From a virus (lineage: Duplodnaviria; Heunggongvirae; Uroviricota; Caudoviricetes): 64,000 nt of DNA. The position numbers and the translations under genes are program-made. The stretch lies in the IMG/VR virus record IMGVR_UViG_2875713109_000001; one strand, given 5' to 3'. Positions 17,324 to 55,883 of this stretch are shown in pieces. Position 1 is the first letter of the stretch, and each line of letters opens with the position of its first letter. The notes under the pieces were generated by a model. It saw nothing but the letters and a program-made list of their open reading frames with translations, was not told the origin of the DNA and made no database searches.

Positions 17324-18183
17324 TATTCGGGAAGTTTCAGCTTTGGATTGCGAGAATGGACGATTACAAAACTTTCCCGGCCTTTCTTCTCAATTGAACA
17401 GTCGAGATAGCCGATTGTTTTAAGCTGTTCTATCGCTTTCTTAATGATACGGTTTTGCTCGCCAACAGCTGACTGCAAAGCCAGGCGCTCACGGATTCGC
17501 GCGAACGATAGCGGCAACGGGTTCTGCGGAAGGCTTTCGATGAAAGTGTAAATGGCTTGTGCAGCTTCTTTCTTCGGAAGGGCACGCAAGGCGTGGTGTT
17601 GCAACAGAACGCGATAATCAAGCTGGAACAGCTCCCAGAGCTTCGAATCGGCCTCCAGCTCTATCAGATCAAGGTCAGCATCAAAACGCCCGACCTTCAG
17701 CAGACCAGTCTGATAGCCGCCTTTAGCATCTTTTCCGCGCTTAAAAGCGATACCCTTGTTACGCAAGCGTCCAAGTGATTCATGAATGGTTAAACGCAGT
17801 TTCGCATCCAGACGTTTTGAGGGGAAACCACAGGCTTTAGCGAACTCCTGAAACGATAACTGGATGGTGTTTGAAGACAAGCCGTATTTGCTGAACGCGT
17901 AGATGACACCGATCCACGTTTTGAAATCAGTATCCATATCGAGTCGAGGACCGGTGATTTTAATATCATCGTAACCCTCGGCTTTAGCTATCTCCAGCTG
18001 GGAAAACGCTTTGGTGGCATCAATCTCTTTACTTTCTCCTTTGCTCTTTGATGGCTTCGGCACGAATACCCCCAAGCGCATCAACGCTACAGGCTGCACA
18101 GTGTTGTTTGAATTAACTGTTAGTTCTTTTGCCTTACTTTCAATGTCTGCGTAAAGAATATCGGAGATAAATGATTGATTCAT
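17323..18183 (-). CDS. repA: RepA plasmid replication initiator
   Basis: 286 aa as in P1 RepA; flanked by 5 iterons upstream and 9 downstream, with DnaA boxes and GATC cluster upstream. Confidence 0.85.
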   Translation of the reverse strand: MNQSFISDILYADIESKAKELTVNSNNTVQPVALMRLGVFVPKPSKSKGESKEIDATKAFSQLEIAKAEGYDDIKITGPRLDMDTDFKTWIGVIYAFSKYGLSSNTIQLSFQEFAKACGFPSKRLDAKLRLTIHESLGRLRNKGIAFKRGKDAKGGYQTGLLKVGRFDADLDLIELEADSKLWELFQLDYRVLLQHHALRALPKKEAAQAIYTFIESLPQNPLPLSFARIRERLALQSAVGEQNRIIKKAIEQLKTIGYLDCSIEKKGRESFVIVHSRNPKLKLPE

Positions 18184-18374: not shown

Positions 18375-18460
18375 CCTGCAACGATCAGGGATCTATATGG
18401 ATCTAATTGGGATCTGTATGGACCTAATTATTGGATCTACCCAGTGGATAATGTGGATAA
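18375..18460. other. oriR accessory region: five GATC sites and two DnaA boxes
   Basis: GATC at 18383, 18390, 18400, 18411, 18434; agtggataa and tgtggataa (TTATCCACA reverse) at 18442-18460. Confidence 0.6.
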
Positions 18461-47950: not shown

Positions 47951-49144
47951 GTGACCTGGGACGATCACAAGAAGAATTTTGCTCGCCTGGCGCGAGATGG
48001 TGGTTACACCATCGCACAGTATGCCGCCGAGTTTAATCTTAACCCTAATACCGCACGTCGTTATCTCCGTGCCTTCAAAGAAGACACCAGGACAGCGGAC
48101 AGCCGCAAGCCAAATAAGCCAGTCAGGAAGCCACTAAAAAGCATGATCATTGATCACTCTAATGATCAACATTCCGGTGATCACATTGCGGCTGAAATAG
48201 CAGAAAAACAAAGGGTTAATGCCATTGTCAGTGTCGCAGTCGAGAATGCGAAGCGCCAAAATAAGCGCATAAATGATCGTTCAGATGATCATGACGTGAT
48301 CACCCGCGCCCACCGGACCTTACGTGATCGCCTGGAACGCGACACCCTGGATGATGATGGTGAACGCTTTGAATTCGAAGCTGGCGATTACCTGATAGAT
48401 AACGTTGAAGCGCGGAAGGCCGCGCGCGCTATGTTGCGTCGGTCCGGGGCCGATGTTCTGGAAACCACTCTTCTTGAAAAGTCTCTTTCTCATCTCCTTA
48501 TGCTGGAGAACGCCAGGGATACGTGTATTCGCCTGGTGCAGGAAATGCGCGATCAGCAAAAAGCCGATGATGAAGGTACTCCGCCTGAATACCGTATCGC
48601 GAGCATGCTAAACAGCTGTTCCGCGCAGATAAGCAGTCTGATCAACACCATTTACAGCATCCGGAATAACTATCGAAAAGAAAGCCGGGAGGCGGAAAAG
48701 CACGCTTTGTCTATGGGGCAAGCTGGCATTGTTAAGCTGGCATACGAACGAAAGCGTGAAAATAACTGGTCAGTGCTGGAAGCAGCTGAATTTATCGAGG
48801 CGCATGGCGGGAAAGTGCCGCCCCTGATGCTGGAGCAAATCAAAGCCGATCTGCGTGCTCCTAAGACCAATACCGATGATGAGGAAAGGCAAACTGCCGT
48901 CGGTGGTCCTTCTCTTGAAGATCTGGACAAAGTTGCGCGAGAACGGGCCGCCAACCGCCGCGCCGATGCCGCATTGTGGATTGAGCAGCGTAGGGAAGAA
49001 ATCGCCGATATCGTTGATACAGGCGGTTATGGAGATGTTGATACTGAAGGTGTATCAAACGACCCATGGCTGGAACAAGACCTGGACGAAGACGAGGAGG
49101 AAGACGAAGAAGTTACCCGCAAGCTATACGGGGATGATGATTAA
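47951..49144 (+). CDS. pacA: PacA terminase small subunit (pac recognition)
   Basis: 397 aa as in P1 PacA; contains the pac hexanucleotide clusters; GTG start with AAAGGAAG SD. Confidence 0.85.
48144..48303. other. pac packaging site
   Basis: Four TGATCA hexamers (48144, 48151, 48163, 48178) and three TGATC(A/G) (48274, 48286, 48298) about 100 bp apart, the 4+3 Dam-site layout of P1 pac. Confidence 0.8.
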
Positions 49145-53525: not shown

Positions 53526-53763
53526 AATTATGCCTCACTGTATTGACAACACAGAGCCTGAAGCTCTGACCTACTGTTTCACCCATGATCCATGCTGGGG
53601 TAATCTAACAACATTGCGCTGTGTGTAAGATGAGCAATGCATAGCTGTAATGCCGTTGTATAAGGTTTCCCTGTTTGCTCATTTCCTTCTGAGCCGCTCT
53701 ACAACGCTGAAGACACATTAAATAGTGAATCCAAAGTCGTATTACGTAACGGCGGCAAAACTA

Positions 53764-53780
53764 TAATTTATTAGAGCAAT
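53764..53780 (-). promoter_or_regulatory. C1 operator-like site (immC)
   Basis: taatttattagagcaat, reverse complement of operator motif. Confidence 0.65.
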
Positions 53781-53846
53781 TGTCAAACAACTATGAAAAA
53801 CAATCCAGTTTTTAGCTGGTGGAGTGGGATTTTTCTCTCTAAATTT

Positions 53847-53863
53847 ATTGCTCTAATAATTAT
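53847..53863 (+). promoter_or_regulatory. C1 operator-like site (immC)
   Basis: attgctctaataattat. Confidence 0.65.
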
Positions 53864-53906
53864 TGATTTTTGTGCACAGCTGGACGTAAACTCCTCTTCG
53901 GACCTG

Positions 53907-53940
53907 ATAACTTCGTATAGCATACATTATACGAAGTTAT
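53907..53940. other. loxP site-specific recombination site
   Basis: Exact 34-bp ATAACTTCGTATA-GCATACAT-TATACGAAGTTAT. Confidence 0.97.
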
Positions 53941-54129
53941 CTTAAGGGTTATTGAACATGATCAATTTACCTGTAAATCCATACAGTTCAATACCTTATC
54001 AGGTCAAATAGTGATCACTTGATCATTTGATCAAGGTTGCGCTACGTAAAATCTGCGAAATGTTGGCAGTGTTAGTGCTCCAGATTTCGCGTAGCGCACT
54101 TAGCACCACCAATCAATCAGAGGTGAAAA

Positions 54130-54351
54130 ATGGGATATTCAGCTGCTAAAGTGTCCACTCATCTTGAGCTTGAGAAAAACCGTGGTTACTGGCGGGCAAA
54201 AGGGTTTGATCGTGATAGTTGTCAACTGTCATTATCGCGCGGTGAAGAGAAAATAGAACGCACGCGCGGTCGCTGGCGTTTCTATGACGAGAACCATAAA
54301 CAGGTAAAGGCAGAGCCGATCCTGTACACTTTACTTAAAACCATTATCTGA
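54130..54351 (+). CDS. hypothetical small basic protein (73 aa) between loxP and cre
   Basis: GAGGTGA SD 6 nt before ATG; ends 7 bp before cre start. Confidence 0.3.
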   Translation: MGYSAAKVSTHLELEKNRGYWRAKGFDRDSCQLSLSRGEEKIERTRGRWRFYDENHKQVKAEPILYTLLKTII

Positions 54352-54358
54352 GTGTTAA

Positions 54359-55390
54359 ATGTCCAATTTACTGACCGTACACCAAAATTTGCCTGCATTA
54401 CCGGTCGATGCAAGGAGTGATGAGGTTCGCAAGAACCTGATGGACATGTTCAGGGATCGCCAGGCGTTTTCTGAGCATACCTGGAAAATGCTTCTGTCCG
54501 TTTGCCGGTCGTGGGCGGCATGGTGCAAGTTGAATAACCGGAAATGGTTTCCCGCAGAACCTGAAGATGTTCGCGATTATCTTCTATATCTTCAGGCGCG
54601 CGGTCTGGCAGTAAAAACTATCCAGCAACATTTGGGCCAGCTAAACATGCTTCATCGTCGGTCCGGGCTGCCACGACCAAGTGACAGCAATGCTGTTTCA
54701 CTGGTTATGCGGCGGATTCGAAAAGAAAACGTTGATGCCGGTGAACGTGCAAAACAGGCATTGGCGTTCGAACGCACTGATTTCGACCAGGTTCGTTCAC
54801 TCATGGAAAATAGCGATCGCTGCCAGGATATACGGAATCTGGCATTTCTGGGGATTGCTTATAACACCCTGTTACGTATAGCCGAAATTGCCAGGATCAG
54901 GGTTAAAGATATCTCACGTACTGACGGTGGGAGAATGTTAATCCATATTGGCAGAACGAAAACGCTGGTTAGCACCGCAGGTGTAGAGAAGGCACTTAGC
55001 CTGGGGGTAACTAAACTGGTCGAGCGATGGATTTCTGTCTCTGGTGTGGCTGATGATCCGAATAACTACCTGTTTTGCCGTGTCAGAAAAAATGGTGTTG
55101 CCGCGCCATCTGCCACCAGCCAGCTATCAACTCGCGCTCTGGAAGGGATTTTTGAAGCAACTCATCGATTGATTTACGGCGCTAAGGATGACTCTGGGCA
55201 GAGATACCTGGCCTGGTCTGGACACAGTGCCCGTGTCGGAGCCGCGCGAGATATGGCCCGCGCCGGAGTTTCAATACCGGAGATCATGCAAGCTGGTGGC
55301 TGGACCAACGTAAATATTGTCATGAACTATATCCGTAACCTGGATAGTGAAACAGGGGCAATGGTGCGCCTGCTGGAAGATGGCGATTAG
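54359..55390 (+). CDS. cre: Cre tyrosine recombinase
   Basis: 343 aa, essentially identical to recalled Cre (MSNLLTVHQNLPALPVDA...MVRLLEDGD), one substitution noticed. Confidence 0.97.
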   Translation: MSNLLTVHQNLPALPVDARSDEVRKNLMDMFRDRQAFSEHTWKMLLSVCRSWAAWCKLNNRKWFPAEPEDVRDYLLYLQARGLAVKTIQQHLGQLNMLHRRSGLPRPSDSNAVSLVMRRIRKENVDAGERAKQALAFERTDFDQVRSLMENSDRCQDIRNLAFLGIAYNTLLRIAEIARIRVKDISRTDGGRMLIHIGRTKTLVSTAGVEKALSLGVTKLVERWISVSGVADDPNNYLFCRVRKNGVAAPSATSQLSTRALEGIFEATHRLIYGAKDDSGQRYLAWSGHSARVGAARDMARAGVSIPEIMQAGGWTNVNIVMNYIRNLDSETGAMVRLLEDGD

Positions 55391-55752: not shown

Positions 55753-55883
55753 AAAAAGCCTGGCAAGGAGCCAGGCTGCACAAAAGAGCGGGTTTGTATT
55801 CCGCATCCAATCAATCAAGAAGGAGTATAGCACACAGGTACTGAAGTGAAAAAATGTGATTCGCGAGAAACAAAATATCTACC

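Follow-up and report, generated by a model that had tools for sequence, protein, structure and literature searches.

A conserved 61-nt inverted repeat in the loxP-proximal control region of cra-cre in a P1/P7-type phage-plasmid

Introduction

Few recombination systems have been studied as thoroughly as Cre-lox. The control region of cre was reportedly described by Sternberg and colleagues in 1986, with three promoters; full Dam methylation is said to lower the activity of one of these, pR1, and cra-cre transcription is said to go up on unmethylated or hemimethylated DNA. The IS10/Tn10 transposase promoter pIN and the IS50 transposase promoter are also Dam-sensitive, with a GATC located within a promoter hexamer.

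The region is well covered by GenBank annotation. Entry X03453 (Sternberg et al. 1986) lists a "pot. ORF1 (aa 1-73)", a ribosome-binding site and the promoters pR1-pR3, and the title of the accompanying paper names Dam regulation of cre. In the P1 genome record AF234172 (Lobocka et al. 2004), a LexA site is annotated at 46-65, P2coi at 41-68, cra at 207-428 and cre at 436-1467. Promoter P3cre, which equals pR1, has its -35 hexamer at 104-109 and its -10 hexamer at 124-129, and P2cre and P1cre lie inside cra. The P7 record (AF503408) contains four Dam sites at precisely the four positions found in the DNA analysed here. Both genome records label the GATCs as "Dam methylation sites within the regulatory region of cre". 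A published map places cra between loxP and cre (PMC2409434), and the gene (P1_gp002, "cre associated function") is listed as non-essential for plaque formation in a CRISPRi survey (PMC10695390). The P1vir RNA-seq paper mentions neither cra nor cre.

Here, we describe positions 53941-54351 of a 64,000-nt stretch of viral DNA, referred to as the window. A previous reading of the interval, made from the letters alone (the sequence-only reading), had pointed to a cluster of Dam sites, an inverted repeat and a small open reading frame between loxP and cre. We compare these elements with the annotated P1 and P7 loci and with more divergent relatives, and consider what the inverted repeat may do.

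Results

Identity of the locus

A megablast search with positions 53800-54500 matched 24 phage records, and P1, P7, phiW39, SJ46 and RCS47 share 97-99.5% nucleotide identity with the window across this entire segment. The annotations lying under the match comprise cra, cre, the lox recombination site, four promoters and the Dam sites. The coordinate offset is exact, with position n of P1 (AF234172) corresponding to window position 53923+n. The cre regulatory regions in X03453, AF234172 and AF503408 share with the window loxP, the Dam sites, the LexA box, P2coi, pR1, pR2, pR3, cra and cre, all at equal offsets (Table 1). As in P1-type cre regions, loxP is found directly upstream of the interval and cre directly downstream. 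Given the P1/P7/phiW39-type identity and a Cre protein matching that of P1 at 342 of 343 residues, the region represents the loxP-to-cre interval of a P1/P7-type phage-plasmid. Positions 53941-54351 are thus almost certainly the loxP-proximal control region of its cra-cre operon, in which cre is served by three sigma-70 promoters and pR1 is linked to Dam.

Compared to P1, the window has four GATC sites, as P7 does, where the second P1 site reads GACC. Further differences are a few substitutions in the interior of the inverted repeat, residue A5 in Cra (T5 in P1) and a T19R exchange in Cre. The latter (codon 54413-54415) is the sole difference from the reference P1 Cre. Upstream of the interval, the minus strand contains a 283-aa and a 69-aa ORF. 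The homologue of the 283-aa protein in related loci matches the phage C1 repressor Pfam family, and going by the P1 map we take the two ORFs to be c1 and coi. The Dam-regulated promoter, cra and the SOS box are therefore real features of this DNA that are already known and annotated.

More divergent leaders were examined in Cronobacter phage JK004 (L005), a Salmonella type (L086), a Klebsiella type (L089) and a further locus, L104. Apart from these relatives, an exact 34-nt loxP was observed at 17548-17581 of Lactococcus phage Q33 (JX564242.1 / NC_049809.1), within the annotated portal gene. A match of this length is not expected by chance; an engineering scar or contamination of the assembly may explain it.

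Table 1 Features of the loxP-to-cre region, in window coordinates.
Feature	Position	Strand	Remarks
loxP	53907-53940	.	Exact canonical ATAACTTCGTATAGCATACATTATACGAAGTTAT; 13-bp inverted repeats around an 8-bp spacer; lox in AF234172, X03453 and AF503408
GATC 1	53960-53963	.	P1/P7 positions 37-40, annotated Dam site; absent in 5 of 52 distinct P1-group sequences and in L104
P2coi	53964-53991	-	From AF234172 41-68; reads leftward over loxP toward coi
LexA (SOS) box, CTG-N10-CAG	53969-53988	+	Annotated LexA site in P1 and P7; CTGTAAATCCATACAG kept in five lineages
GATC 2	54013-54016	.	P7 Dam site 2; GACC in P1
GATC 3	54021-54024	.	Alternative -35 of pR1 in X03453; invariant in 52 distinct P1-group sequences
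P3cre (pR1)	54027-54052	+	From AF234172 104-129 and X03453 147-180
61-nt conserved dyad/hairpin element	54038-54098	+	Arms 54038-54055 and 54081-54098; without annotation in the P1, P7 and X03453 feature tables
CCAATCAATCA motif	54109-54119	+	Directly upstream of the cra Shine-Dalgarno; precedes the first leader gene in five lineages
Shine-Dalgarno of cra, GAGGTGA	54120-54126	+	Putative rRNA binding site in X03453
cra (ORF1)	54130-54351	+	73 aa; "putative cre associated function"; annotated in P1, P7, phiW39, SJ46 and RCS47
P2cre (pR2)	54206-54235	+	From AF234172 283-312; -35 TTGATC with a further GATC at 54208-54211; -10 CATTAT
P1cre (pR3)	54323-54347	+	3' end of cra; from AF234172 400-424; TGTACA/ATTAT
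cre	54359-55390	+	343 aa; 342 of 343 residues identical to P1 Cre

GATC sites and promoter pR1

The GATC tetramers of the interval start at 53960, 54013, 54021 and 54029, with three of them located within 20 bp. The sequence-only reading had counted four sites within 60 bp; the number is correct, but the stretch they occupy, from the 53960 to the 54029 site, is 73 bp long and not 60. In the 52 distinct P1-group sequences, site 2 is removed by an 8-bp deletion in three and mutated in two. Site 4 (54029-54032) lies inside the -35 hexamer of pR1 and is invariant in all 52 sequences as well as in five divergent lineages; by the P1 and P7 annotation, the sites at 54021 and 54029 both overlap the pR1 -35. 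The TGATCA directly upstream of the inverted repeat likewise shows no change across five lineages, between which synonymous sites have reached saturation.

Both hexamers of pR1, the -35 (TTGATC, 54027-54032) and the -10 (TAAAAT, 54047-54052), are identical to those of P1. The promoter displays the sequence arrangement of a Dam-sensitive promoter, namely a GATC that overlaps a core hexamer and is kept in relatives. Its spacer measures only 14 nt, which is why pR1 fell below the threshold of a consensus promoter scan. The -10 hexamer is poorly kept in the JK004 (TGAATT) and Klebsiella (TGAATA) lineages.

When 259 GATC sites were placed randomly in 64 kb, at least one four-site cluster arose in 52% of trials, so that a single cluster is unremarkable by number alone. 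Overlapping four-site runs number five in the window, against 0.8 expected. These five dense runs resolve into three loci: oriR/incC (18383-18437), pac inside pacA (48145-48326) and the cre region. Dam sites are annotated in oriR/incC, and every GATC cluster of such density in the window is a known Dam-linked element.

Judged by its sequence, the locus is one for which regulation of cre expression by Dam methylation is established. The link is stated in GenBank feature notes and in the title of the 1986 paper, and pR1 is reportedly more active without Dam methylation. Methylation-sensitive regulation of cre, as put forward in the sequence-only reading, thus appears right in substance, and it is not new in view of the Dam-site annotation of AF234172 and AF503408 and the 1986 title.

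The IS10/Tn10 pIN and IS50 promoters likewise have a GATC in a core hexamer, a comparison drawn from general knowledge and the 1986 title. In contrast to these, the GATCs of the cre region lie in the -35 (TTGATC) and are repeated every 8 bp, and the gene product is a resolvase/cyclase, not a transposase. With a GATC in a core hexamer, promoter strength would follow methylation, so that expression would be tied to the moment when the replication fork passes or unmethylated DNA enters. Repression of pR1 by full methylation would result in a burst of cra-cre expression on newly entered or newly replicated DNA. The unmethylated or hemimethylated state right after infection or replication would coincide with the time at which Cre cyclises the genome or resolves dimers.

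The LexA box and the remaining promoters

Within 53969-53988, the palindrome CTGTAAATCCATACAG overlaps P2coi and constitutes a putative LexA binding site. Minus-strand promoter-like sites equivalent to P2coi are present in L086, JK004 and L104. The position of the box over P2coi would tie SOS induction to coi, the gene for the C1 inactivator.

The LexA box forms the centre of a 21-nt imperfect palindrome in the surrounding segment (53950-53993), which includes TTGAAC (53952-53957) and GTTCAA (53986-53991). Two -35-like hexamers thus face each other at the box. One belongs to P2coi, and the other could drive a weak, SOS-controlled plus-strand promoter toward cra-cre. Plus-strand promoter matches at the box are better in L086 (10/12) and JK004 (9/12) than in the window. 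Upstream of the repeat, the scan returned no plus-strand promoter above its threshold in the window, L089 or L104.

At the sequence level, the hexamers of the predicted promoters pR1, pR2 and pR3 are all present at their annotated offsets. Transcripts from pR1 would carry cra with its strong Shine-Dalgarno sequence, and pR2 and pR3, located within cra, would express cre alone. The sequence-only reading had overlooked the LexA box with P2coi as well as pR2 and pR3 inside cra, all of which are annotated.

The cra gene and its protein family

The 73-aa ORF begins with an ATG and stops 7 nt ahead of the cre ATG (54359). Its extent, its GAGGTGA Shine-Dalgarno sequence and its distance to cre had been correctly recognised in the sequence-only reading. 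Its description there as unannotated does not hold, as the ORF is cra/ORF1 in the GenBank records of P1, P7, phiW39, SJ46 and RCS47 and has been known as ORF1 since 1986. The encoded protein is 98.6% identical to Cra of P1 and 100% identical to Cra of phiW39 and SJ46.

We find that cra is a real, conserved protein gene under purifying selection. Among the 52 distinct P1-group sequences, codon position 3 accounts for 17 of the 29 variable columns and, with singletons left out, for 12 of 15. Between lineages, dN amounts to 0.25-0.35 with dS saturated, and dN/dS ranges from 0.04 to 0.30 where dS is computable. The small co-expressed protein suggested earlier, which was to be doubted if translation signals and conservation were lacking, has both a Shine-Dalgarno sequence and this signature of selection; the suggestion was right in substance, and not new.

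Cra matches PHROG 804 over its full length (E = 7e-35). Homologues with 59-73% identity occur in P1-like elements of Salmonella, Klebsiella and Cronobacter, and others with approximately 40% identity in SSU5-type phage-plasmids. In total, 97 homologous protein clusters were obtained, and tblastn located a Cra homologue in 1470 PLSDB plasmid records. The conserved core of the family reads E.E...GYWRAKGF...R..I...R..W..Y...L..LLK.

Members of PHROG 804 are also found away from cre. In the SSU5 type, the homologue ends an operon beside repA. The copy in the Salmonella phage SSU5 itself (L004, 3510-3722) is without an adjacent tyrosine recombinase, and this approximately 40% identical type is widespread in SSU5-type phage-plasmids. 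Since the SSU5 homologue does not lie beside a recombinase, "cre-associated" describes a position and not a function. A further homologue was observed in a 108-kb Yersinia pestis contig (L096).

Searches of Cra against Pfam and NCBIfam gave no match, and an HMM search against PDB sequences returned nothing. The AlphaFold2 model (pLDDT 70) consists of two helices, a three-stranded sheet and a C-terminal helix. A Foldseek comparison of this model with PDB and BFVD yielded no match at E <= 0.001, and its viral (BFVD) matches are all uncharacterised proteins. A recognisable DNA-binding fold was not found in the predicted model. Methyl-CpG-binding domains appeared low in the PDB list (E = 2.0-3.9, TM 0.16-0.26) and were rejected as noise.

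Several NCBI-derived records name Cra proteins of 71-73 aa "creatininase" (P0002, P0005, P0006, P0024 and P0029-P0031; plasmid matches H62, H71 and H77). No Pfam or NCBIfam model backs this name, which seems to have arisen when the gene symbol cra was wrongly expanded and the error was passed on between records.

Structure and conservation of the inverted repeat

Among the elements considered so far, the 61-nt inverted repeat is the only item of the region that is unannotated, going by the P1, P7 and X03453 feature tables. The arms gcgctacg and cgtagcgc noticed in the sequence-only reading are present (54039-54046 and 54090-54097). A repeat finder extends them to 18 nt each, 16 of which are complementary, with 25 nt between the arms. 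That reading placed the repeat downstream of the regulatory sites. In fact, the annotated pR1 -10 (54047-54052) is part of its left arm. With the -10 inside the left arm, pR1 transcripts should start in the loop and be devoid of the left arm.

The repeat is exactly 61 nt long in the window, P1, P7, JK004, L086, L089 and L104 (six lineages). In an alignment of 12 sequences, no variation is seen in 23 of the 36 arm columns, whereas all 25 loop columns vary. Scanning IMG/VR for GCTACG followed by CGTRGCGCA with exactly 43 nt between them returned 112 stretches, all of one length. At spacings of 28-42 nt the scan returned none, and at 44-60 nt two matches in coding-like sequence, which are evidently due to chance. 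The right arm ends in GCGCA in all sequences, including those in which the partner bases differ.

As RNA, the repeat of the window folds with -26.3 kcal/mol (z = -4.2 against shuffles), and across five lineages the folds range from -22 to -30 kcal/mol (z -4.2 to -6.7). A covariation test on the only six lineages found 87.5% of cells paired and two pairs changed on both sides; 69 of 500 shuffles reached the observed score, which is not significant. The retention of pairing is mostly explained by both arms being conserved in sequence. In the P1 group, inner-stem changes at 54056 and 54080 are uncompensated.

Neither strand of 53700-54600 contains an intrinsic terminator, and the repeat is followed by CTTAGCACC. 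The best overlap in Rfam 15 is mir-137, which at 16.6 bits (E = 2.6) stays below the gathering score of 56.7. Beyond the repeat itself, no copy of an arm with fewer than two mismatches occurs in the 64-kb window. Two likenesses noticed by eye were set aside: an arm matches a loxP half-site at 7 of 13 positions, about chance level over the possible alignments, and the resemblance to an ARG box consists of TGAAT and ATTCA in two lineages, approximately 40 bp apart.

Leaders of other P1-like lineages and the CCAATCAATCA motif

The leaders share a common order, consisting of lox, TGATCA, the LexA box, two to three more GATC sites, the inverted repeat, CCAATCAATCA and a start codon. The GATC by the dyad, the LexA box, the dyad arms and CCAATCAATCA persist in five lineages, and the sequence between them is unalignable. 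A recognisable Shine-Dalgarno sequence follows CCAATCAATCA in the window, JK004 and L104 only. A scan of genome contigs for more lineages contributed SSU5-like loci and a single Pantoea MAG lacking the repeat, and nothing else.

In the four comparison loci (L005, L086, L089 and L104), the leader first enters a 356-aa ORF, followed by cra and cre; in the Salmonella and Klebsiella types, the 356-aa ORF (1934-3004 in L086 and L089, 2437-3507 in L005) is preceded by a 68-aa ORF at about 1688-1904. Neither ORF has a match in Pfam or NCBIfam. Distant homologues of the 356-aa protein (46-57% identity) were observed in unrelated, GC-richer viral contigs.

Like the dyad, CCAATCAATCA is without annotation in the P1, P7 and X03453 records. 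Exact plus-strand copies are located at 40293-40303, 54109-54119 and 55807-55817 of the window. Allowing one mismatch, seven copies are present against 2.0 expected, a number reached in none of 100 shuffles. Each exact copy lies 0-2 nt ahead of a Shine-Dalgarno sequence, and two come after terminator-like hairpins. Other P1-like lineages likewise have the motif ahead of the 68-aa ORF, the 356-aa ORF and the cra leader; it may act as a translational enhancer or represent a module-junction motif.

Discussion

The chances that the 61-nt dyad is functional at all appear evenly balanced. If it is, our best guess is that it modulates cra-cre expression. As a conserved cis element, it would modulate either pR1 or the leader, and it could do so as a stem-loop in transcripts started upstream or as a DNA-level dyad overlapping the promoter. 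Tentatively, and somewhat short of an even chance, we postulate an undescribed cis-regulatory element of cra-cre, being either a leader stem-loop of an SOS promoter or a two-site operator that clamps pR1 and is perhaps bound by Cra. These two readings and a third, in which the repeat does nothing of its own, are rated about equal, and each taken singly is improbable.

The complementarity of the arms may be incidental, with the left arm being promoter sequence and the right arm having an unrelated role in the leader. This is fairly unlikely, as no lineage has lost the complementarity of the arms at 16 of 18 positions, even with a randomised 25-base interior and saturation at synonymous sites, and as z lies below -4 in five of five lineages. 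In addition, the invariant GCTACG sits in the promoter spacer, which is not read by sigma-70. The non-significant covariation, an A-C mismatch at pair 11 in most sequences and the uncompensated inner-stem changes of the P1 group nevertheless speak in its favour.

An RNA stem-loop in the 5' leader of cra-cre, which we consider unlikely, would require transcripts from upstream of 54038, for instance from a LexA-controlled plus-strand promoter, and could stabilise the transcript as a 5' hairpin or be processed by RNase III. It would account for the stable folds in five lineages, and the hairpin also survives in a 160-nt context fold (z = -3.5). Where a pair has changed in one arm only, which is the case for four of them, the plus strand retains a G-U wobble each time, and at pair 14 A-T is exchanged for T-A. 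In L086 and JK004, sites resembling plus-strand promoters adjoin the LexA box or overlap it; however, the scan found none upstream in the window, L089 or L104. Transcripts from pR1 would lack the left arm, and the pR1 leader alone is unstructured (z = 0.0). The covariation score, the absence of an Rfam match and the invariance of the right-arm GCGCA regardless of its partner also argue against a structure selected as RNA.

The repeat may instead act as DNA, with inverted sites over the pR1 -10 and approximately 43 bp downstream that are bound by a regulator, either a host factor or an operon product such as Cra, or that form a cruciform; either would repress pR1. This reading too has a low probability. 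It is consistent with arms that are kept by sequence and not by covariation, as the invariant columns of arm and loop indicate, and with a spacing that is constant in 112 of 112 IMG/VR copies and six lineages despite a scrambled interior. The left arm overlaps the -10, and the distance between the arm centres, 43 bp, corresponds to about four turns of the helix. Cra also goes by the name "putative Cre-associated regulatory protein" in the entries of some depositors. On the other hand, no binding protein for the repeat is known, the 64-kb window holds no further good arm copy, the Cra model appears to be without a recognisable DNA-binding fold, and SSU5-type phages have Cra but not the repeat. 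The distance from lox to the repeat is near constant as well (97 nt in four of five lineages), so the fixed repeat length may merely reflect an indel-poor region.

Taken as a whole, the locus offers little discovery value, as publications and GenBank records have covered its Dam promoter, small gene and SOS box for decades. cra itself is a widespread, selected phage-plasmid gene, present in approximately 1470 plasmid records that include SSU5-type and pMT1-like (Yersinia pestis) plasmids. If the postulated cis-regulatory element were indeed a pR1 operator bound by Cra, this would provide the first function for the protein. The residual interest lies in the 61-nt dyad and CCAATCAATCA in the native cre leader, either of which could affect the timing of natural cre expression.
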